In this document: positions 5,589-58,187 of the stretch, piece by piece | Layout: every line of letters starts with the position of its first letter | How positions within the stretch are numbered: the stretch's first letter is position 1 | Assembly: GCA_041650335.1 (NCBI GenBank) | Contig: JBAZLK010000006.1 | Location: forward strand, 5,788 to 69,787 | Length of the DNA stretch: 64,000 nt | Direction: 5' to 3' | From: Patescibacteria group bacterium | GTDB taxonomy: Bacteria; Patescibacteriota; Patescibacteriia; JAHIZJ01 | Program-made: the position numbers and the translations under genes | The notes under the pieces: generated by a model | What the model saw: the letters and a program-made list of their open reading frames with translations, nothing else | Database searches by the model: none | Told to the model about the DNA's origin: nothing

Positions 5589-7360
5589 AGGGCCTCCGGT
5601 GCGAGATTACCGTTTTTAGAATTCTGGAAGCGTCCGCGAAGTTCTTCTTCCGAGAGTTGCGAGAGCGCAATTTCCCGATAGACGGGGCATGATTTCATTA
5701 GCTCGGCGTGTTTACCCTGGCCGACGATCCGGCCTTCGTCGAGAACAATAATCTTGTCGGCATCCATGATCGTGCTGATTCGTTGGGCCACAATCAGAAC
5801 AGTTTGGCCGCGCGTTTCTGCTTTCAGGGCGTGGCGCAGGCGCGCGTCAGTAGCAAAGTCAAGCGCTGAAAAGCTGTCGTCAAAAATAATGATCTCGGGT
5901 CGGCGGATTAAGGCCCGGGCGATGGACAGACGCTGTTTTTGACCGCCTGATACGTTTGTTCCGCCCTGAGCGATCGGCGACTCATACGCACCAGGGAGGT
6001 TGGCTACGAACTCTTTCGCCTGGGCGACGTCAACCGCGTGTTTAACGTCCTCATCTGTTACGTGGGGTGCACCGTATTTTAGATTTGAAGTCACGCTGCC
6101 GGAAAAGAGGATGCCTTTCTGTGGCACATAGCCGATCTTGGCGTAGAGGTCTTCCTGGCGCATCTGTCGGATGTCGACCCCGTCGACGCGGATAACACCG
6201 TCGGACACGTCGTAAAAACGCGGTATTAAATTGATCAGGGTTGATTTGCCACTGCCGGTACTGCCGACAAAAGCCGTTGTCTGTCCGGACTGAGCGGTAA
6301 AGGTGATATTTTCGAGAACCGCTGTGTCAGCGCCGGGGTATGTAAACGTAACATGGTCGAATTCAACCTGTCCGGTGGCATTCGCTGGCGTTACGGGTTG
6401 GTCAGGGTCGGTGATAGTCGCTTCGGTCTCGAGCACTTCGGCCACGCGCTGGGCCGAAACAGAGGCGCGCGGCACCATGATAAAGATGATCGATATCATC
6501 AGGAAGGAAAAAATCACCTGGCTGGCATAAATCATAAAGGCCATCATGCCGCCGATCTGCAGGCTGCCCGACTCAATGAGGTGTGCGCCCACCCAAACGA
6601 TGCCGACCGCCGTTACGTTCAAAATCAGCATCATGATCGGCTGCATAACCACCATTAAACGATTAACGAACAGGTTGACGCCGGTTAGATCGACGTTGGC
6701 CGCGTCAAACTTTTTTTCTTCATAGGCTTCGCGATTGAATGCACGAATCACGCGCAATCCTGTCAAAATCTCGCGCGTCACGAGGTTCAGCCGGTCAACC
6801 AATTTTTGCAGGCGTCTAAATCGCGGCAGGGCGATGGAAAACAAAACCACAATAATCGTCAGGAGCACGCCGACGGCTAAGCCCATGATCCAGGTCATGG
6901 AGGGAGCGTTTTGGTAGGCCTTTGCGATTGCCCAGATGCCCATAATCGGCGCCATGAGCGCGAGACGGAGAATCATGACGAGAACCATCTGAATCTGCTG
7001 GATATCATTCGTCGAACGGGTGATGAGTGAGGCCGTGGAAAAGGTATTAAACTCGGTCAGAGAAAAGCTCTCAACTTTGGTAAATACCCGTTCGCGGATC
7101 GTCTTGGCGAAGCCAGTGGCGATGCGGGCGGCAAAATAGCCGACCACAATGTTGGCCAAGCCGCCGCCCAGCGCCATGGCCAGCATCAGCGCACCGGTTG
7201 TCCAGACGAGATGTGAATTTTGGCCGACAATGCCATCGTTGATGATTTTGGCCATGTAGTCTGGCAGCGTCAGATTGGCGGCGACCATCAAGAAAACCAT
7301 TGCGATGAGGACGAGCAATTGCCAAACATACGGTTTAAAATATGAGAGAAGTTTTTTCAT
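5585..7360 (-). CDS. ABC transporter ATP-binding/permease fusion (partner half-transporter)
   Basis: TMD plus NBD (GSTGSGKST, LSGGQKQRL, IIFDDSFSALD). Overlaps the upstream gene by 4 nt, as is typical of a heterodimeric exporter pair. Confidence 0.9.
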   Translation of the reverse strand: MKKLLSYFKPYVWQLLVLIAMVFLMVAANLTLPDYMAKIINDGIVGQNSHLVWTTGALMLAMALGGGLANIVVGYFAARIATGFAKTIRERVFTKVESFSLTEFNTFSTASLITRSTNDIQQIQMVLVMILRLALMAPIMGIWAIAKAYQNAPSMTWIMGLAVGVLLTIIVVLFSIALPRFRRLQKLVDRLNLVTREILTGLRVIRAFNREAYEEKKFDAANVDLTGVNLFVNRLMVVMQPIMMLILNVTAVGIVWVGAHLIESGSLQIGGMMAFMIYASQVIFSFLMISIIFIMVPRASVSAQRVAEVLETEATITDPDQPVTPANATGQVEFDHVTFTYPGADTAVLENITFTAQSGQTTAFVGSTGSGKSTLINLIPRFYDVSDGVIRVDGVDIRQMRQEDLYAKIGYVPQKGILFSGSVTSNLKYGAPHVTDEDVKHAVDVAQAKEFVANLPGAYESPIAQGGTNVSGGQKQRLSIARALIRRPEIIIFDDSFSALDFATDARLRHALKAETRGQTVLIVAQRISTIMDADKIIVLDEGRIVGQGKHAELMKSCPVYREIALSQLSEEELRGRFQNSKNGNLAPEAL

Positions 7361-10221: not shown

Positions 10222-10547
10222 CATTCCAGCCCCTGGCGATTGGCGAAAGCAATGACGCCTTTGTCAGCGGGCCGGAATCTATGCTAAGGGAACGCACATT
10301 CGCTGATCGGTCAACGAAACTGTACGCCGAAAGAGCTTCCCGGCTCAGCATGATGAGAACCGAGCGCGTTGACCGCCGTTCACGACGGACAGGCTGCCTG
10401 ATCATTGACCACGGCGCGTGGTCTTTGTCGAGCCTGCCCGATTTTTTATGCATATCAGTAAATCAGATCGGAATGATAATAAAAAGGCGAGAGTAAGATT
10501 TATTTTTCTTGATGCTTTACAAATGCCGGGTCGGCACCCGGCATTTG
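10222..10547 (+). ncRNA. candidate non-coding RNA (unknown family)
   Basis: Starts just downstream of a consensus promoter. GC-rich and structured, with a GACCACG-GCG-CGTGGTC hairpin and a perfect 12-bp hairpin caaatgccgggt-cggc-acccggcatttg followed by U-rich sequence. No ORF of 60 aa or more on this strand that is not a shadow. Confidence 0.25.
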
Positions 10548-10580
10548 TTATTTCACGAATTTTTGTGCGGCAATAAGAAG

Positions 10581-12032: not shown

Positions 12033-12077
12033 AATATGATAATAATGTCGACGCAGCCCAATATTGAATTCATATAC

Positions 12078-12101
12078 TACTGGTGCCCTCGGAGGGAATC
12101 G
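12078..12101. repeat. 24-bp direct repeat identical to the 3' end of tRNA-Arg(TCG) (att-like remnant)
   Basis: tactggtgccctcggagggaatcg at 12078-12101 is identical to 12241-12264, which covers the tRNA 3' acceptor/T-arm. Confidence 0.8.
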
Positions 12102-12243
12102 TGTCCTGGGCAGCGGCGGACTTGCCACCGGCAACTCCGTCGGCGTCTCGCAGCGCCCTTCGGGCGAGCTCACTGCTGCCCGTTCGATTCTTAAACCCAC
12201 TTTTCTTCAATAGCACTTACTATATTTGTGTCATTGCCCTTAC

Positions 12244-12318
12244 TGGTGCCCTCGGAGGGAATCGAACCCCCATCACTGGTTCCGAAGACCAGCGCATTAT
12301 CCATTATGCTACGAGGGC
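12244..12318 (-). tRNA. tRNA-Arg (anticodon UCG)
   Basis: Reverse complement GCCCTCGTAGCATAATGGATAATGCGCTGGTCTTCGGAACCAGTGATGGGGGTTCGATTCCCTCCGAGGGCACCA, with anticodon loop CTTCGGA. Confidence 0.85.
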
Positions 12319-22374: not shown

Positions 22375-22390
22375 TGTTCCACGTGGAACA
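22375..22390. promoter_or_regulatory. perfect 16-bp palindrome TGTTCCACGTGGAACA (copy 1), putative operator upstream of membrane-protein gene
   Basis: Self-complementary over 16 nt. Sits about 45 bp upstream of the 22436 start. A second identical copy is at 23633-23648. Confidence 0.6.
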
Positions 22391-23632: not shown

Positions 23633-23648
23633 TGTTCCACGTGGAACA
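23633..23648. promoter_or_regulatory. perfect 16-bp palindrome TGTTCCACGTGGAACA (copy 2), upstream of PHA_gran_rgn-like gene
   Basis: Identical to copy 1. Sits about 85 bp upstream of the minus-strand start at 23551. Confidence 0.6.
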
Positions 23649-23828
23649 ATGATGAATGGAAAGTTGAGATAACACTATATTTTTCTAATTAAATTATCTT
23701 TGTGACATAATTTTTCTCACGCCCAATTTGCTTCGGGCGATCGAAATAGTTTTGTCAGATTATTGCTCTTCGTATAACCAGATCAATAGGGAATAAAAAT
23801 CTACTGTCTCTTCTTGAAGACGCTGGAT

Positions 23829-23857
23829 AAAAAAAGACCGAAATAACTATGTTCGGT
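23829..23857 (-). terminator. Rho-independent terminator downstream of tRNA-Ala(GGC) and its truncated duplicate
   Basis: Minus-strand hairpin accgaacatagttatttcggtc followed by a T7 tract. Confidence 0.5.
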
Positions 23858-23913
23858 ATTTGTTCGGGTATAAAAAAGTCGTTTAAGAAAATGCTTTGTA
23901 GTTTTAATATGAT

Positions 23914-24048
23914 GGTGGACCCTACCGGGCTCGAACCGGTCCCCGGGGTTCGGCGGTCCAGAGACATCGCCTCACCCGTCTCATCTCCTCGCGGGCACAA
24001 GCAGTTGTGTCCGCTCGTGGACTCGACCCTCTTCCATGCGCATGGAAG
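23914..24048 (-). pseudogene. truncated tRNA-Ala(GGC)-like copy (anticodon arm to CCA) carrying an 86-nt GC-rich insertion in the variable region
   Basis: Shares tggtggaccctaccgggctcgaaccggtc (the 29 nt from T-arm to CCA) and the anticodon arm ctcttccatgc(g)catggaag with the intact gene 48 bp upstream. Lacks the D-arm and 5' acceptor. Has one extra nt in the anticodon loop. Confidence 0.7.
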
Positions 24049-24090
24049 TTTGTATAAATAAAGAGGAGACTCATATTTATTTATCTATTT

Positions 24091-24166
24091 TGGTGGACCC
24101 TACCGGGCTCGAACCGGTCACCTCTTCCATGCCATGGAAGCGCTCTACCAAATGAGCTAAGGGCCC
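24091..24166 (-). tRNA. tRNA-Ala (anticodon GGC)
   Basis: Reverse complement GGGCCCTTAGCTCATTTGGTAGAGCGCTTCCATGGCATGGAAGAGGTGACCGGTTCGAGCCCGGTAGGGTCCACCA, with G3:U70. Confidence 0.85.
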
Positions 24167-24312
24167 ATGTTCTTCACGCCTGATTATAGCGGGTGATGGC
24201 AAAAAAATCAACTCAACCCTCGATGCAACGAACCATGTTGACAGCTGACATTATTATGTTAGGATGGGGCCGAACGCGATTTTCTGTCTGCCGGTCGACA
24301 GAGGGAGGAACC

Positions 24313-27556: not shown

Positions 27557-27674
27557 AAGAAATTCAAAAAGTAAAATTCAAAATGATTGAAGGCGGCTGG
27601 GGCCGCCTTTCTTGGTGCTATTAAATAAAAAAAGAGTCCGAGGTGGTGGTCCACCCGAACCGTGAGCAATGAGG

Positions 27675-28457
27675 CTACAGCAAACCGTTGTATTCCGGCG
27701 GTAACGCTCGGAAGAAACGAATGTCGGCATCTTTCTCCCACCATTCGGGGTGGGAGCAGTTCGAAAGCCTGATCCGTTCGTGAATGAGGTCTTGCGCCGC
27801 CATCCAGGCGAACAACCCGACGTCCCAGTAAGGACAATCCTCGTCCAGTCCCAGGGCCTGGGCGATGTCGTCGTCCCAGGTGGCGTGAGGCCGGTTGAGG
27901 CCGCAGCCGGCTTGGTCGAAGGAGAGCTCAGTTATGAGCTGGCCCCACCGGCCGTTTGTGGTCTTATTCAGGGCCTCCATCCTTGTCTCTCGCCAGGCGG
28001 CTGACAGAGCCAGCCACTCATCGGAATACGCCTCCGGCAGGTAGTCACCAGCGCGCAACCGACAGAGAATGTGCAATAGACCGATGTTGCGAGCTAGGTC
28101 CGTGTTGATCCTGTCGGAAACATTGACCCTGATGATCCATCTCTGGCCGTCGTGGTCAAGCTTCACCGGCCACCACGATCCCGGCGCTGGTACAATGACG
28201 AACTTCGCAGCGGCATTGAGCGGGACGATGATCCCCTTGTTGTCAGCCGTACCGATTGTGCCGTTGGCGCATAGGTAGGCGTAGAGGTCAGGGGCGTTGT
28301 CCCGAAGGAACGCGGCCATGGCGACGACCTCCGTCTTCTCTTCAGCGCTGAACTGTGTCAGCGCTGACGGCGTGAGGAAGTCGATGGCCCAGACGAGTTG
28401 AGTGGACAGGCACGTGAGAACCGCACACGCAAGTACTGAGCCAAGAATCCGACGCAT
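27675..28457 (-). CDS. secreted hypothetical protein (GC-rich block)
   Basis: Signal peptide MRRILGSVLACAVLTCLSTQLVWA. Trp- and Cys-containing, with no recognisable domain. About 62% GC. Confidence 0.45.
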   Translation of the reverse strand: MRRILGSVLACAVLTCLSTQLVWAIDFLTPSALTQFSAEEKTEVVAMAAFLRDNAPDLYAYLCANGTIGTADNKGIIVPLNAAAKFVIVPAPGSWWPVKLDHDGQRWIIRVNVSDRINTDLARNIGLLHILCRLRAGDYLPEAYSDEWLALSAAWRETRMEALNKTTNGRWGQLITELSFDQAGCGLNRPHATWDDDIAQALGLDEDCPYWDVGLFAWMAAQDLIHERIRLSNCSHPEWWEKDADIRFFRALPPEYNGLL

Positions 28458-28751
28458 CTGACACCTCCATCTGATCTGTTGGACAGTCGCCTCGGGGGCA
28501 GCCGTCCTATGGTTTCAGTTTGAGCGACACACCGTTTCAACAATAACCCCTTCTTATAGCAGAGGATTACATTTGTGTCAATAGCTGGTCTGCGTGGGGC
28601 GCATCATTAAAGCAAACTACGGCCGTATCTAAAAAAAACGGAGCATACTAAATAACATAATCAAGTTAACCTGTCGGGAAGAAGAAAAAAACATGGCGCC
28701 GCCGGGCTGTCTTCTTCCTATGGAGCGCTCTATTGACAGTCGCTATTCATC

Positions 28752-29786
28752 ATGATAAGCAGTCGTCATAGTGCGGTAGCGGTAATGTTGTTGGAGCGTT
28801 TGTTGGATCATCGGTGGCTGTCACGGTCACCGGGAAAGTGGGAGGGTGCCGTGCGTACGATATGGTGTCTGGTTCTTCTGGTGGTTGTTTGTTCCTTGAT
28901 GTGCCCGGCGGTCGTGGGGCAGACTCCCTATGTTCCGGGCGACTATCCGTACTACCCTAGCGACGGCCAAGCCGTCAGCTCGGCTCGGGATTCTTCTCGG
29001 CCAGATTTCGGACAAGCTCATCCGGTCTGGATGAAGCGCCTCGGGGTGACCTACTACCGGGGCTACTACTCCTGGTCTTGGGGCGAGATCCGTTACGGCT
29101 CGCGTTGGCTGCGGTGCGAGCCGGAAGACAACAATAGCTGGTGGTGCCGTGAGAACCCCGATCGCTGCCCGGATAGCCCGTTGATCTACGAATCGCGTAT
29201 CGAAGGGAGCCGCCGGTACTGCCGGTTCCATGAGGCTGACAGCCTCGGTGGATACGTCGAGGCGCAGATGGTTACGTCGGACCCGAGGCTATCGGTTTGG
29301 TGGATGTACTATGCAGCGGAACCGGCCACTTCGTTGTTCGAAGCGGTTGAACGCGGCGCTGGCGCCTACGATCGACCGGACGTCACGGAGGCAATCATCC
29401 GGCACATGATTCAGCGCGGTGCGGTCGCCAAGCAGGACATTTCCAAGCTAACCCCGACGGAAATCCGCGACGCGCTGTGCTGTTATACCAGTGAGGCGCT
29501 CATCGCCAATGCCGAACTGGTGTCTCAGCACGTGTTGCCTTTCAGGTTCAACGGCACGCCGGCCCCCGGCGACACGCTGGTCATCTACTATGATGACGAC
29601 TACGGGCCGGACATGACGGTTGGCGCGGAGCAGACCTATATCGTGATGAAGACCGGGCTATCTTCATTCACGGGCGTACGTTATGTCGAGATGCGCGACT
29701 TGTCGTGCTGTCTCTACGTCAGCCGGCCTCTGGAGGAGCTCGGGAGGATCAATTCGTACGTCGCCGTTTACCCGCTGCGTCAGTAG
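28752..29786 (+). CDS. secreted Cys/Trp/Tyr-rich hypothetical protein (GC-rich block)
   Basis: The probable start is GTG at 28851, preceded by ggaggg, giving signal peptide VRTIWCLVLLVVVCSLMCPAVVG. The mature protein is rich in W/Y/C (YYRGYYSWSWGE, WWCRENPDRCPD). Divergent from the preceding secreted gene. Confidence 0.45.
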   Translation: MISSRHSAVAVMLLERLLDHRWLSRSPGKWEGAVRTIWCLVLLVVVCSLMCPAVVGQTPYVPGDYPYYPSDGQAVSSARDSSRPDFGQAHPVWMKRLGVTYYRGYYSWSWGEIRYGSRWLRCEPEDNNSWWCRENPDRCPDSPLIYESRIEGSRRYCRFHEADSLGGYVEAQMVTSDPRLSVWWMYYAAEPATSLFEAVERGAGAYDRPDVTEAIIRHMIQRGAVAKQDISKLTPTEIRDALCCYTSEALIANAELVSQHVLPFRFNGTPAPGDTLVIYYDDDYGPDMTVGAEQTYIVMKTGLSSFTGVRYVEMRDLSCCLYVSRPLEELGRINSYVAVYPLRQ

Positions 29787-29874
29787 CATTCGGTGTTCGA
29801 GCCCGACCCATGAAAAGGCCGGGCGTTTTATTTTTCCACCTACGGTATTATATAAAAAGGAGTATACTCAAAAT

Positions 29875-42648: not shown

Positions 42649-42937
42649 GACTTCTCCTCCTCATGTCGAGCCGACGACAACTGAAGAAGAGATAGTTATG
42701 TCCCGTGGTTCGATGGCTCTCACCACAGGCTCTGGTTTTGGCACCTTCTTCCAGCCGGTTTGGCCGGAAGGGTTGCCGAGCGGTCAATGGGCCAGCACCC
42801 TCGCGCTACTCGGCATAACTTCTCGACGGCGAGGACAGTGTAGGAAAGAACGCTTCGTCTGTCAAATTACGACTGACGAAGGTTTACAAAAGGCCGATAA
42901 TAGGCTACCATACAAAAACGTAACACCTATTTTTTAA

Positions 42938-51129: not shown

Positions 51130-51218
51130 TGGTGCCGCGGGAGAGCCCCGAACCATGCAAGATTCGGGGGAACTCTCATGGGGTTGCCCCGGACCCATCG
51201 CGGTTCGGGGTAAGTGTC
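51130..51218 (-). pseudogene. degenerate 3' fragment of tRNA-Leu(UAA) (variable arm, T-arm, acceptor, CCA) interrupted by two GC hairpins
   Basis: Reverse complement ...GGGGCAACCCCATGAGAGTTC[CCCCGAATCTTGCATGGTTCGGGG]CTCTCCCGCGGCACCA matches the 3' third of the intact tRNA-Leu. A 24-nt hairpin is inserted in the T-loop, and a second hairpin replaces the anticodon-stem 3' strand. Confidence 0.65.
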
Positions 51219-51478
51219 GTTGGCAAGCTGTCTCTAAACATCAGTTTCAACGTAGATCTGCCTTTTGATGTTTTAAAGTAACGCTCGCGTCGGACAGCAT
51301 CAAGTTTTGATAAAAAAGCTTCGTAGCCAATTATTGCCGGCCTGCCCATATGCGCAGTTGTCCAGCATTTACCATTGTTATGCTCGGTAATTCTACGCCT
51401 CAAGTTATTTGTTCTACCAATATACATTCGTCTCTGTGTCGGAGAAAAGAGGAAATACACATAATGCATAAAACTCAT
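51176..51478 (-). CDS. GIY-YIG nuclease family protein (small stand-alone GIY-YIG, UPF0213-like)
   Basis: HYVYFLFSPTQRRMYIGRTNNLRRRITEHNNG matches the GIY-(10-11)-YIG...R...E...N catalytic motif. The last 11 codons overlap the tRNA-Leu 3' fragment. Confidence 0.75.
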   Translation of the reverse strand: MSFMHYVYFLFSPTQRRMYIGRTNNLRRRITEHNNGKCWTTAHMGRPAIIGYEAFLSKLDAVRRERYFKTSKGRSTLKLMFRDSLPTTLTPNRDGSGATP

Positions 51479-51511
51479 CGTGTGTCTCCCTGTCGTTTAT
51501 TTCATTCCTGT

Positions 51512-51598
51512 TGGTGCCGCGGGAGAGAATCGAACTCTCATGGGGTTGCCCCCACAGGATTTTAAGTCCTGCGTGTATACCAGTTCCACCACCGCGGC
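51512..51598 (-). tRNA. tRNA-Leu (anticodon UAA), type II with long variable arm
   Basis: Reverse complement GCCGCGGTGGTGGAACTGGTATACACGCAGGACTTAAAATCCTGTGGGGGCAACCCCATGAGAGTTCGATTCTCTCCCGCGGCACCA. Confidence 0.85.
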
Positions 51599-51640
51599 AC
51601 CAACAAGATTGAAAAGTTTTTTAATTTGATTTTATCCGGC

Positions 51641-51720
51641 ACCACGCCAGGTGCCGGATATCCCGAACCCATCGTGGTTCGGGATAAGTCCTGCGTGTAT
51701 ACCAGTTCCACCACCGCGGC
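51641..51720 (-). pseudogene. 5' fragment of tRNA-Leu(UAA) (acceptor 5' strand through anticodon position 35) fused to GC hairpin
   Basis: The 36 nt GCCGCGGTGGTGGAACTGGTATACACGCAGGACTTA are identical to the intact gene, then sequence diverges into TCCCGAACCACGATGGGTTCGGGA. Confidence 0.65.
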
Positions 51721-54832: not shown

Positions 54833-55459
54833 ATGCGTACGGCGTTGCTCGTGGTGTTGTTGCTCGCGGTTCTGACCGGTGTGGCGCTGGCTGACCAGTG
54901 CCGCGATACCGGGGTCCAGCTCCAAGTCGTGGCGATCGGCGACAAACCGCTCGCTGCGAGCGGTACGAAGGCGATCTTCATCGGTGAATACCTGAAGATC
55001 CCGAGTGCTAGTACGGGTGGCGAGATCTACTTCGCTACCGTCGGGGTCAAGCAGCCCCTGCCGCACGATTGCTGGGTCCAGCCGGCCGCGAGTTACCTCG
55101 GCGGCTGGTACGCGAAACACGATGCCTCATCGTTGGCTCTTACCGCTGGGGCCAAGGCTGGGCCGGTGTACCTGACCCTGGATTTCAAGCGCTTTTCGGC
55201 GGTCGGCAATCACCGGACCAAGTTCTGGTACCACACGGTCGACTGGAAGTTCAACGGTCCGGCCGATCAAAAAGCGAAGGACAGAACCGGCGAGTACACC
55301 GTCGGGATCCACTTCAACAAGGTGGATCAGTCCGAACGCTGGGGGCTTCATCTGGCCAACCAGCTGAAACCCCATATCAGGCTAGAGGCCCGGTACTACC
55401 GGGTTCTCTACGGCGACGACCCGGTTCAGTACTTCCGGGCGCAACTGGCTATCTCTTGA
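54833..55459 (+). CDS. island gene B: secreted hypothetical protein
   Basis: Signal peptide MRTALLVVLLLAVLTGVALA. 208 aa with two Cys and no known domain. Confidence 0.45.
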   Translation: MRTALLVVLLLAVLTGVALADQCRDTGVQLQVVAIGDKPLAASGTKAIFIGEYLKIPSASTGGEIYFATVGVKQPLPHDCWVQPAASYLGGWYAKHDASSLALTAGAKAGPVYLTLDFKRFSAVGNHRTKFWYHTVDWKFNGPADQKAKDRTGEYTVGIHFNKVDQSERWGLHLANQLKPHIRLEARYYRVLYGDDPVQYFRAQLAIS

Positions 55460-55799
55460 CAGAACACCTCCGTGGCCGGGGCAATGGCCACAACCGGAGA
55501 GGCGCGCGCATTCCATGCTCAGCCCGCGCCTCTCCACCTCTTCCGAATCCTTGAGGCCATACCTCGATGGTTCAGATGAGTGACGCGGCATAAATTCACG
55601 TGGTTCGTGGGAGCTGACCGGAGTGCACATATGTGGGTTTCATATGTGTTCACTGCGGTCCGTTCTAGGACTTCGGTGGCAGGCTAGCCGCATGGTTTGT
55701 CTGACATCGATGGTAGTATAAGACGCGCCCGTGGCGTCTTTCGCGCCGGTCCCATAAAGCCGGCATCACTCAAGGGGGTTCCTGTTTCTGAGAGGAGTA

Positions 55800-57131
55800 T
55801 TGGGAATGCGCAAGCTCATCCTGATCCTTGTCCTGATCCCGCTGGCATCCTTCGGGTTGGCCAGCCTGGCCTCGGCCCACGGTCCGATCGGTCCGCATTC
55901 GCACTATGCGCTGCGCGACCCTGACGACTGGGGGTTGTGGGGTATGTCGGGCGGCGACGAACGCGTCTGGGTCCTGCTCATGAAGGCAAACCCGGACATC
56001 CCGAACGACCGGCGCATGCTGCCTGGGTATGCGGTCAACATCCCGGAAGGCGTGGTCATGACTGAAGACGGTCGCGCGGTGCTCGCTGAGACGACGCCTG
56101 TGACCGAACCGACGATTCCTGCGCTCAGGCATGACAGCGGAGACTCTCTGCGGGCGGCCGTCACGAGGATGGTCGGGGCGCAGGAAAACCAAAGCCGCGC
56201 GCTGAACTTCCTCGTCTGGGCGCTCGTCGTCGTGTTGGCCATACTCCTCATCACCGCGTTGGTCGCGATGAGCCGGGGTAACACCATCAGGGCGCGCAAC
56301 GACGAACTCGCCAGGCTGCGGCAGCGGCACGACGAGGAGATCGAGAGCGCGACCCGGGAGGCGGTCGAGGAGGAACGACGCCGGCGGCGCGAGCGTATCC
56401 AGCAGGATCCGTACGCGGGTCCGCCGGTCGTGGCTGCGGGGCTGCCGACAGGCAACCTGGCCGCTGACTTCATGGTGAACCTCTACCGGCGGCGCTTCCC
56501 CGATCCGCAAGGTGCGGAACGTGGCACGCGCCTGCTTCGCGTCGAGCCGATCTGGGTCGAGGGCTACGACATCAACGTCGGTTACGGCGATGACCGTCAG
56601 CGCCGTCGCAACCTTATGGACCAGCAGCCGGCCTGGCGCGGCGTCTTCTCCTCCGGCGTGGTGATGGACCTGCTTCAAAGGTGCGCGAACGGCCTGTTCT
56701 CCGAGATCGGCCAACAGCTTCGCGACGACCAGGTGAGTCCGCGACTGGGTATTCCGGCGCTGGACGTTAACCGGCTGGTCTGGCCCGAGCTGGCCACCGT
56801 GACCGCGTCCGTTCCCGTGCCGACGGCTCCGGTCGCTACCACCGATGCTTCGGTCGCGCCTGCGACACCGGGAACGACCCCGTCGGCCGTTCCTCCGGGA
56901 CCGCGGATGTTCGTCATCATGGATGATACCGCCATCTACCGCCACCCGGGCGACACCGCCTTCCGCATGCTGTCCATCATCGGCCTCGACATCCAGTCCA
57001 GCGAGCGGGGCATCACGCTCCGGCGGGACGGGAACGAGATCGTTCTGGGAACGGATGCGGCGGGTGACGACCGGCAGGCGGCGAAGATCGGCGAGATCGT
57101 CGCGCGCGCCGGCACGGGCAGCGCCAGCTAG
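55800..57131 (+). CDS. island gene C: membrane protein with N-terminal signal, LysM-like segment, TM helix, Arg-rich coiled coil and Pro/Thr/Ala-rich linker
   Basis: MRKLILILVLIPLASFGLASLASA; VWVLLMKANPDIPNDRRMLPGYAVNIP is a LysM-like C-terminal motif; TM helix ALNFLVWALVVVLAILLITALVAM; then EERRRRRERIQQ. Confidence 0.45.
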   Translation: MGMRKLILILVLIPLASFGLASLASAHGPIGPHSHYALRDPDDWGLWGMSGGDERVWVLLMKANPDIPNDRRMLPGYAVNIPEGVVMTEDGRAVLAETTPVTEPTIPALRHDSGDSLRAAVTRMVGAQENQSRALNFLVWALVVVLAILLITALVAMSRGNTIRARNDELARLRQRHDEEIESATREAVEEERRRRRERIQQDPYAGPPVVAAGLPTGNLAADFMVNLYRRRFPDPQGAERGTRLLRVEPIWVEGYDINVGYGDDRQRRRNLMDQQPAWRGVFSSGVVMDLLQRCANGLFSEIGQQLRDDQVSPRLGIPALDVNRLVWPELATVTASVPVPTAPVATTDASVAPATPGTTPSAVPPGPRMFVIMDDTAIYRHPGDTAFRMLSIIGLDIQSSERGITLRRDGNEIVLGTDAAGDDRQAAKIGEIVARAGTGSAS

Positions 57132-57218
57132 CACAACCTGAACGGCATCGCGCCGTTCAACAACCAGGAGGGGGCTGTCACCTGACGGCTCCCTCCAAAC
57201 TTCTTTCATCAATCATCC

Positions 57219-57249
57219 TTCTGAATTCAGAATTATCCATTATTCTCCC
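57219..57249 (+). promoter_or_regulatory. conserved 31-nt intergenic element, copy 2 (contains perfect palindrome TTCTGAATTCAGAA)
   Basis: ttctgaattcagaattatccattattctccc. Confidence 0.45.
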
Positions 57250-57260
57250 CACCGAATTGA

Positions 57261-57620
57261 TTGTTTCATGGAAAACAGTCAGCTCGGTGCGGATGGAAGT
57301 CAATATCCGCCGGGAGGATGAACGTGACCGGTTATTTCATTGCCGCTCTGACGGGGATTGTTACCATGATCGTCGTCATCGTGGCCTACGAGCTCAGTAA
57401 GAGAATCCGTCGGGTTGCAGTCGCAAACGCCGTCATTATTGTACTCATTGTCGTGGCGGTTTCTGCAGGCATCTTCGGCTTATGCCAAGACGACAAAGTA
57501 AGCGACATCCCGACGGCCCGTGTGTTCGTCTGGCTTGTCTCCTACTCCGTAGGTGCCCTGGCGGGATGGCTCTTGAGGATCCAAGATCGTATCAACCGCT
57601 GGTTGCCGGAGCGCGATTGA
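57261..57620 (+). CDS. island gene D: small membrane protein (3 TM)
   Basis: 119 aa ORF. The start may instead be at MNVTGYF. Confidence 0.35.
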   Translation: MFHGKQSARCGWKSISAGRMNVTGYFIAALTGIVTMIVVIVAYELSKRIRRVAVANAVIIVLIVVAVSAGIFGLCQDDKVSDIPTARVFVWLVSYSVGALAGWLLRIQDRINRWLPERD

Positions 57621-57773
57621 GGCTGACCGCGATCTGAATACTTCTCGTAGTCTACTGCATGGCAGTCGTTGAAACAACGCGGCGCGACAGCCGCACGGTG
57701 TACGAGTGGCTCGATCAGTTTGGCCGGACCGGACGGTTATCGCCGTCGGACCCCACAAACACGGAGGCGACCC

Positions 57774-58187
57774 ATGTTCCAGATCGAACTATCCCACACC
57801 TTCAACGTCGCTGAGTGGCGCTGTCCGGTTACTCGCATCGTTGACCTCGACTTCGTCGAGCGGGCGATTCGTCGCGGCAGTCTCGTGACGTTCACCTGCG
57901 CCATCGTCGGCTGCCACCACGAGGGGCGAGCGGTCGAGATGCGGAATCTGGACCGTGCGAAGAACGACGGCGTCATCGTGATCCTCTGTCAGGGCCATGC
58001 CTGTCAGATGGAGGATCAGGGACATCGTACGTACTGGCTCGACCAGACCCTAAGCCACGCTGTCCGGGGATTCCAGCAGCACTTCGACGAGGTGGTTGTC
58101 CGGACTGCGGACAGCCGGCCGCACACGCACCTTGGCCTGGTTCTCCAGGCGGCCTGCCGCCAGCAGCTCAGCCGTCAGGTCGCCTGA
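57774..58187 (+). CDS. island gene E: Cys/His-rich hypothetical protein (possible zinc-binding)
   Basis: RBS acggagg. C..C....CHHEG....ILCQGHAC..EDQGH residues are candidate metal ligands. Confidence 0.4.
   Translation: MFQIELSHTFNVAEWRCPVTRIVDLDFVERAIRRGSLVTFTCAIVGCHHEGRAVEMRNLDRAKNDGVIVILCQGHACQMEDQGHRTYWLDQTLSHAVRGFQQHFDEVVVRTADSRPHTHLGLVLQAACRQQLSRQVA

Follow-up and report, generated by a model that had tools for sequence, protein, structure and literature searches.

A partial tRNA-Ala copy interrupted by a structured GC-rich element beside an intact tRNA-Ala(GGC) gene in a Patescibacteria genome, a possible scar of a small cassette

This report concerns a tRNA-Ala(GGC) gene and the partial, interrupted copy that follows it in a 64,000-nucleotide stretch of DNA from a Patescibacteria group bacterium (NCBI GenBank assembly GCA_041650335.1, contig JBAZLK010000006.1, positions 5,788 to 69,787). 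The whole stretch is referred to as the window, and positions in it are counted from its first letter. ARAGORN and Rfam identified six tRNAs in the 64-kb window, tRNA-Ala(GGC) among them, and the genes around this tRNA are housekeeping genes for ACP, thioredoxin, an aminotransferase, glutamate dehydrogenase, a PHA_gran_rgn protein and an MscS-like protein. Read along the minus strand, the locus consists of the following features.

24183-24211, minus strand: promoter-like site TTGATT-17-TATAAT upstream of tRNA-Ala(GGC) (consensus scan, 10/12 matches)
24091-24166, minus strand: intact tRNA-Ala(GGC) with G3:U70 and an encoded CCA (ARAGORN; Rfam RF00005, 58.3 bits)
24049-24090, minus strand: AT-rich linker of 42 nt with a weak AT hairpin, which opens a 178-nt lineage-specific insertion (absent from the sister-species loci L001 and L004-L007)
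24028-24048, minus strand: copy of tRNA-Ala positions 27-46 (anticodon arm plus AGG), CTTCCATGCGCATGGAAGAGG (direct reading, repeat search, blastn)
23942-24027, minus strand: GC-rich structured element of 86 nt and ~66% GC, here called type 1, in the variable loop of the copy
23913-23941, minus strand: copy of tRNA-Ala positions 48-76, 29 nt (T arm, 3' acceptor strand and CCA; blastn 29/29, repeat search)
23829-23857, minus strand: weak intrinsic-terminator-like hairpin followed by U7, the terminator of the tRNA-Ala unit (fold)

The intact gene at 24091-24166 forms a complete cloverleaf, and alignment shows the same tRNA-Ala(GGC) sequence in the sister species. The partial copy cannot form a cloverleaf since positions 1-26 are gone, and it received no ARAGORN call and no Rfam match even at E <= 10. 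When compared with the window by blastn, its anticodon arm aligns with that of the intact tRNA over 21 nt at 95% identity with one indel; one additional C in the anticodon loop gives an 8-nt loop. The 29-nt segment matches exactly (E = 3e-11 against the window), and the resulting direct repeats, at 24091-24119 and 23913-23941, are far above chance and have 149 nt between them. No credible open reading frame (ORF) lies in these 149 nt, and two ORFs over the insert (23755-24000 and 23922-24074, both on the minus strand) were taken as spurious because they cross tRNA-derived sequence. The initial annotation of this stretch, which was made from the letters alone, described much of this anatomy correctly. 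Direct reading and blastn bear out the retained anticodon arm with an inserted loop base (a C on the minus strand, which is the G of the plus strand), the exact 29-nt copy, the 86-nt GC-rich insert and the missing 5' part, while the distance from the CCA end to the start of the copy is 42 nt and not 48 as given there.

Orthologous loci were obtained in two ways. A scan of species-representative genomes with the window aminotransferase retrieved one relative (L001; retrieved loci are numbered with an L) at 93% protein identity, and four further sister-species loci (L004-L007) were retrieved via an exact match to a 98%-identical ACP. Two other loci from the same genome scan, L002 and L003, encode unrelated aminotransferases (25-29% identity) and were rejected. 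The five sister-species assemblies share gene order with the window at ~92% identity (~91-98% in nucleotide sequence on either side of the tRNA) and have a single tRNA-Ala(GGC) that directly abuts the downstream flank and terminator of the window copy. The flank after the copy (TCATATT...) runs on as in the sister species, the empty site holds one copy of the repeat, and the sequence that is present in the window and absent from the sister species has its limits exactly at the repeats. A metagenome scan with the first 46 nt of tRNA-Ala(GGC) returned 48 loci from diverse Patescibacteria, and a second anticodon arm or 29-mer was found in none of them within 520 nt downstream. Among these loci, L041 and L028 are syntenic with the window (DAGK, bactofilin, tRNA-Arg/tRNA-Ala(GGC)/tRNA-Ala(CGC), thioredoxin and glutamate dehydrogenase), and both lack the copy.

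Since the tRNA is plain in the sister species and in the outgroups, the 178 nt that include the linker and the partial copy are a lineage-specific insertion inside the tRNA transcription unit. Parsimony favors a gain in the lineage of the window over a loss, because neither the sister species nor the outgroups have the copy. The initial annotation had named a unique insert, together with a decayed tandem tRNA duplication in relatives, as the outcome that would count against its proposals; the relatives carry a single plain tRNA with no duplication at all, and the insert has homologues, as described below. As a separate observation, sister-species locus L001 has an insertion of ~123 nt (2582-2704) right after tRNA-Ala(CGC) that the window lacks (~22360). 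Its first portion is GC-rich and structured and its second AT-rich, and this tRNA indel is opposite in direction to the one at tRNA-Ala(GGC).

The 86-nt block is one of three strong members of a structured family. When relatives of the window's tRNA-Leu locus were collected through the adjacent TrmH gene, a homologue of ~105 nt was found in L058 (1250-1354; blastn E = 1.8e-5, 547 kb searched), whose TrmH is 87% identical to that of the window. This homologue has on one side 10 nt copied from the tRNA-Leu 5' end and on the other the AT-rich spacer that precedes the intact tRNA-Leu. The other homologue, L063 6457-6545, interrupts the D loop of a truncated 5' tRNA-Lys copy that closely precedes the intact tRNA-Lys gene. 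All three members begin with GGGTCGAG and are co-oriented with the adjacent intact tRNA, and a common minimum-energy fold topology is found in 3/3. In this fold, stem P1 (GUC, a GA/GA internal loop, then a helix) encloses hairpin A (loop CUGC), and a GAGAC linker joins hairpin A to hairpin B, which is composed of GGGU/ACCC, a GA/GA loop, GGCG/CGCC, an AU bulge and GUC/GAC. Pairing extends to 94% of cells in the core alignment, and compensatory changes are seen in 5 pairs, a result that only 3 of 500 shuffles matched. A covariance model (R1) built from the three members gave strong matches in 507 kb of related DNA only to these seed members (79-93 bits), and the window copy, itself part of the seed alignment, scored 84.9 bits (E = 1.7e-16). 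The window copy has the GGGTCGAG start, P1, hairpin A, the GAGAC linker and a hairpin B with CGAUGUC. Type-1 copies thus number one in the 64-kb window, next to one element of a second type described below, and three strong ones in the 507 kb of related loci.

Because its homologues sit in fragments of other tRNAs, the 86-nt block is a separate element and not a derivative of tRNA-Ala, which removes the suggestion in the initial annotation of a structured RNA derived from that tRNA. Judged by its sequence and predicted fold, it represents a structured element specific to this clade, which in related genomes likewise occupies loop positions within truncated copies of tRNAs adjoining intact tRNA genes. 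The same annotation had linked the insert to the tRNA-Leu locus, and rightly so, as the same phenomenon occurs there and a true homologue of the insert stands upstream of tRNA-Leu in L058. Further copies were found in L058 and L063, while the rest of the window and the phage and plasmid records held none. Rfam 15 returned no match for the 86-nt block or its L058 homologue, even at E <= 5-10. Known classes considered for the block were set aside: tmRNA, Y RNA, small ribozymes and riboswitches gave no Rfam match, ARAGORN called no tmRNA, and the core motifs of the hammerhead ribozyme were not satisfied on manual check.

Weak R1 matches in L051, L037 and L009 were not taken as family members, as hairpin A alone was matched; the matched regions, which in these distant lineages follow tRNA-Ala, may be leaders resembling rRNA spacers. 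The 3' flank of tRNA-Ala in distant lineages (L013 ~10450-10580, L018 ~6500-6720 and L047) contains inverted copies of the tRNA 3' end or T loop, and the same kind of copies is present in L009 (3640-3960), L051 (760-1000) and L037 (7750-7930). A recurrent GGGGTCGAGA.CTTAGTAGA motif occurs in the flanks of all six, and these flank motifs may be rRNA-spacer or processing-stem sequences outside the type-1 family. The 5' end of 23S rRNA is found near tRNA-Ala(GGC) in L046 and L048.

The tRNA-Ala locus is not the only one of its kind in the window. A scan for exact 11-mers of each tRNA within 450 nt of it, applied to the window and the fetched loci, identified truncated copies at 3/6 of the window tRNA loci, two of which are siblings of tRNA-Ala.

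12075-12318, minus strand: tRNA-Arg(TCG) sibling locus (scan and direct reading)
51130-51720, minus strand: tRNA-Leu(TAA) sibling locus (scan, direct reading and Pfam)

At the first of these, tRNA-Arg(TCG) (12244-12318, minus strand) is followed by an AT-rich spacer (12182-12243), an 81-nt GC-rich element of a second type (12101-12181) and, beyond this type-2 element, a 20-nt copy of the tRNA-Arg 3' end (12081-12100). The order of tRNA, AT-rich spacer, GC-rich element and 3' fragment is the architecture seen at tRNA-Ala. The type-2 element aligns at 92% identity over 74 nt (E = 1.5e-25) with L062 5721-5794 from the sister species, where it is placed after tRNA-Lys and next to a tRNA-Lys 3' fragment. 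That fragment has the acceptor of the window-type tRNA-Lys, whereas the intact tRNA-Lys of the sister has a different acceptor stem. An old acceptor in the fragment against a new one in the intact gene implies that the cassette arrived with a replacement tRNA and that the old 3' end was displaced downstream, and this mismatch is the clearest sequence sign of such an arrival.

The tRNA-Leu locus is more elaborate. It has a 36-nt copy of the tRNA-Leu 5' end (positions 1-36, ending in the anticodon loop; 51685-51720) and two GC-rich hairpins (51633-51684) upstream of the intact tRNA-Leu (51512-51598). Downstream of the intact gene is a GIY-YIG ORF of 100 aa (51176-51478, minus strand; PF01541, E = 8e-12), a hairpin at 51187-51210, and a 3' copy of about positions 44-87 (51130-51190) in which the T loop is swapped for a 25-nt hairpin (51146-51170, CCCCCGAA...GGTTCGGGG). 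The GIY-YIG gene is bracketed by the tRNA-Leu 3' repeats. An ORF of this family is present in the inserted segment at the window tRNA-Leu, in L024 and in L067/L068, and none is present at the tRNA-Ala locus.

The pattern extends to related genomes. Across the fetched loci and the window, 14 of 105 non-redundant tRNAs have a truncated copy on the same strand within 450 nt, in comparison with a permutation mean of 1.66 and a maximum of 7 when flanks were exchanged between loci. The region upstream of tRNA-Leu is hypervariable among relatives: L057 has no copy there, L058 has the type-1 element, L059-L061 have two 5' copies with GC-rich hairpins after each, and L069 has a 5' copy that is interrupted twice. 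All 7 of the 7 non-redundant GIY-YIG matches in the collected loci lie 19-135 nt from a tRNA, and in L024 and L067/L068 the ORFs stand between truncated and intact tRNA copies; the L024 ORF starts at the ATG of a tRNA-Ala anticodon loop. The GIY-YIG proteins of the clade are chromosomal and comprise the catalytic domain only (73-100 aa). A literature search returned no account of this association of tRNA fragments and elements in Patescibacteria.

Further truncated 5' copies of tRNA-Ala, tRNA-Arg and tRNA-Thr were seen in L024 (2776-3170, minus strand), L067 (3480-3904), L016 (40-230) and L049 (2406-2510), and the D-loop region of these copies contains inserted GC-rich hairpins of the CCCGCCCGAAC...GTTCGGGCGGG type; a GIY-YIG ORF and then the intact tRNA come after the truncated copy in both L024 and L067. 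The short contigs L057 and L058 stop inside or just before tRNA-Leu, which fits with duplicated tRNA pieces breaking short-read assemblies in the clade.

The promoter-like site upstream of tRNA-Ala(GGC) is 100% conserved in the sister species. The terminator that the initial annotation placed at 23829-23857 is present downstream of both copies and is kept in the sister species ~60 nt past the plain tRNA; the hairpin is a weak one (6-bp stem, 9-nt loop, U7, about -5 kcal/mol). A terminator scan overlooked it owing to the length of its loop, and it was recovered by folding. The hairpin in the linker (-5.2 kcal/mol) has no U-run, so read-through from the tRNA into the partial copy is plausible. 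Co-transcription of the tRNA and the copy, as the initial annotation proposed, can be inferred from the position of the 178 nt, which precede a terminator that serves the tRNA in the sister species.

We lean towards reading the tRNA-Ala feature as the scar of a small non-coding cassette that entered the tRNA locus while restoring the tRNA. According to this reading, the cassette would have entered in the lineage of the window species, an intact tRNA-Ala would have been regenerated on one side of the insertion, and the former 3' part would have been shifted downstream, since 29-nt repeats of the tRNA 3' end stand on either side of the insertion. The partial copy (positions 27-76) would then be the displaced, non-functional 3' half of tRNA-Ala(GGC), carrying the type-1 element. 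The insertion would probably travel passively in the tRNA-Ala precursor and be trimmed off afterward, because it lies between the tRNA and the terminator. The insertion machinery, which may be a GIY-YIG nuclease together with break repair or may be a recombinase, most likely acts in trans from elsewhere, because the tRNA-Ala locus has no enzyme gene and GIY-YIG genes occupy the same position at sibling loci.

Several observations weigh against this reading. The insertion was found in one assembly only, and loss in the sister species via the 29-nt repeats is possible at that node. The type-1 family rests on three strong members. Its ends, GGGTCGAG... and ...CCCCGGGG, are not complementary and form no terminal inverted repeats, and there is no fixed target-site duplication, the flanking duplications being tRNA-derived and 10-36 nt long. 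Comparison of the linker (24049-24090) with other spacers, cassettes and the GIY-YIG ORF revealed no significant similarity (p 0.4-0.96 versus shuffles). The type-1 element is 5' of the retained tRNA part at tRNA-Ala and 3' of it in L058. More generally, the GC-rich element keeps its orientation but is on one side of the retained tRNA part at 5'-type loci and on the other at 3'-type loci, and an attP-like architecture shared by all copies was rejected for this reason. No recombinase, nuclease or ORF of any kind was found in the 149 nt between the repeats, and no tyrosine or serine recombinase inside or adjoining the insert, where the neighbors are the ACP, thioredoxin, PHA_gran_rgn and MscS-like genes; the rest of the window was not screened for recombinases.

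An alternative with a clear precedent is that a phage or island integrated at the 3' end of tRNA-Ala, leaving the 29-nt repeats as attL and attR, and that its interior was then deleted down to 149 nt, with the anticodon-arm copy and the GC-rich block as remnants of an attP arm. Identity blocks of att sites of the anticodon-loop type begin at the 5' edge of the anticodon stem, and the copy begins exactly there, at position 27. The direct repeats reach the tRNA 3' end and bound the insert, with one complete and one partial tRNA, and relatives have the empty site. Integration is, moreover, a known origin of partial tRNA genes (PMC9897764). To this extent the proposal in the initial annotation of a leftover attL/attR pair is supported, and island loss is a possible history of the locus, but the DNA between the repeats contains neither an integrase gene nor any other gene of an element, and no integrase or phage gene lies nearby. 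Nor was a matching attP found on a free or integrated element: viral contigs queried with two insert k-mers, the family pattern and the 29-nt core gave no attP-like match, the sole viral match to the 29-mer being a tRNA-Ala(TGC) gene (L008), the phage and plasmid records had no match to the 86-nt insert, and the metagenome collection queried with one 20-mer of the insert had none. The interior deletion would also have to be near-perfect, and to have happened again at tRNA-Arg, and the side of the retained tRNA part on which the GC-rich element is found differs between loci. For these reasons we regard an integrase scar as unlikely. A second reading to which we give a similarly low probability is that the GC-rich element is a functional small RNA riding on tRNA units, with the tRNA pieces serving as processing or stability signals and mobility being secondary. 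Both hairpins are retained through compensatory changes in three genomes, every copy is co-oriented in or adjoining a tRNA transcription unit, the 29-nt T arm, acceptor and CCA are 100% preserved, and both hairpins contain tandem G.A internal loops, which are frequently protein-binding. Set against this, the element is missing at the sister-species locus and in all outgroups, the tRNA pieces vary in kind and side among copies, the acceptor strand of the 3' copy lacks a strand to pair with, the folds have modest z-scores (-1.7 to -2.1), and the strong members are only three.

It is also conceivable that no mobile element was involved and that replication slippage duplicated the 3' half of the tRNA, which decayed and acquired unrelated 86-nt filler. 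Short direct repeats at close spacing are compatible with slippage, but the linker does not repeat the ancestral flank, homologues of the 86-nt block occur in further genomes at different tRNAs, and the layout recurs at the window tRNA-Arg and at 14/105 tRNAs, so that this reading is disfavored and seems very improbable. Least probable of all is an assembly artefact in the form of a false graph loop at the 29-nt repeat. The presence of the insertion in a single assembly would agree with such a loop, yet the loop would still need real 149-nt DNA with the tRNA-Ala 29-mer on both sides, and independent assemblies from NCBI, ENA and Logan contain equivalent arrangements.

The cassette reading can be placed beside several known systems. 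Integrating elements duplicate part of a tRNA gene, partial tRNA genes arise from such integration, and partial tRNAs flank tycheposons (PMC9897764; bioRxiv 10.1101/2020.12.28.424599). As with the attL/attR of phages, integrative and conjugative elements and tycheposons, a complete and a partial tRNA form direct repeats around inserted DNA (PMC9897764; bioRxiv 10.1101/2020.12.28.424599), the tRNA-Ala repeat extends to the tRNA 3' end, and its presence varies between close relatives. In contrast to those elements, there are 149 nt between the tRNA-Ala repeats with neither integrase nor cargo, a structured element in turn interrupts the partial copy, and the sibling loci have 5'-end duplications and GIY-YIG genes in place of integrases. 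Phage T4 SegB is reported to be a free-standing GIY-YIG homing endonuclease in a tRNA gene cluster that is inherited with flanking tRNA sequence (PMC2330249), and the small GIY-YIG ORFs of this clade likewise adjoin tRNAs, between intact and truncated copies. The tRNA-Ala locus differs in having no GIY-YIG ORF, and the clade proteins, whose cleavage specificity would be putative, differ in being catalytic domains only (73-100 aa) and chromosomal, and in interrupting tRNA genes with partial duplication.

Two other comparisons are less close. Repetitive extragenic palindromic (REP) sequences and bacterial interspersed mosaic elements (BIMEs), miniature inverted-repeat transposable elements (MITEs) and CIME-like mini-elements are short, GC-rich, hairpin-forming, non-coding, intergenic, multi-copy and variably present, and the type-1 element resembles them in being short, GC-rich, hairpin-forming, non-coding, intergenic, present in several copies and variable between relatives. 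It departs from REPs and MITEs in having no terminal inverted repeats or fixed target duplication, in that each copy lies in a tRNA fragment beside a co-oriented intact tRNA, and in folding into two distinct hairpins with conserved internal loops instead of a simple palindrome. In Archaea, tRNA introns occur at non-canonical positions and tRNA genes may be split, and the GC-rich insertions described here are similarly found at D, anticodon, variable and T loop positions. Unlike genes with archaeal introns, the interrupted copies are truncated and could not give a tRNA, an intact uninterrupted gene stands alongside, the host is a bacterium, and no bulge-helix-bulge motif was identified.

Other features of the window were noted in passing. 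A perfect palindrome, TGTTCCACGTGGAACA, occurs twice (22375-22390 and 23633-23648) and brackets the MscS-like and PHA_gran_rgn genes, which stand between tRNA-Ala(CGC) and an inverted tRNA-Ala(GGC). In the syntenic outgroups, palindromes of the same type are found in the short spacers of an unbroken tRNA-Arg/Ala/Ala cluster (AGTTCCACGTGGAACT in L041; TGTTCCGCGAGGAACA, repeated, in L028), and this placement suggests a rearrangement at hairpins around tRNA-Ala(CGC) and tRNA-Ala(GGC). A 2.2-kb segment missing from the sister species (27610-29836) encodes ORFs of 260 aa (minus strand) and 344 aa (plus strand) with no Pfam match and may be a small island. A SAM riboswitch (S box) is present at 42693-42821 on the minus strand (49.7 bits, above the Rfam gathering score), and the GC content is raised at 55001-58000 (0.60-0.67 versus ~0.53 window-wide).

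Patescibacteria have tiny genomes with usually one gene per tRNA, and because of this, invaders of tRNA genes must avoid killing their host. The observations presented here suggest that small cassettes, some of them non-coding and some encoding a minimal GIY-YIG protein, spare the host by bringing replacement tRNA segments, and such cassettes appear to turn over fast between sister species. As a tentative extension, for which we would claim possibility more than probability, Patescibacteria may harbor selfish cassettes aimed at tRNA genes that carry either a GIY-YIG gene or ~90 nt of structured cargo, enter at loops and supply their own replacement segment. If that is the case, single-copy essential tRNA genes would survive cassette invasion, the tRNA-Ala feature would represent a recent cassette of the non-coding kind, and the two-hairpin element would be a cis-acting module that is either recognized by the insertion machinery or active as RNA. 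If confirmed, the cassettes would represent a new kind of tRNA-targeting mobile element and a new structured non-coding family. They would also account for the recurring tRNA fragments that confuse annotation and break assemblies, and would provide a naturally occurring, compact means of inserting DNA site-specifically at tRNA genes.

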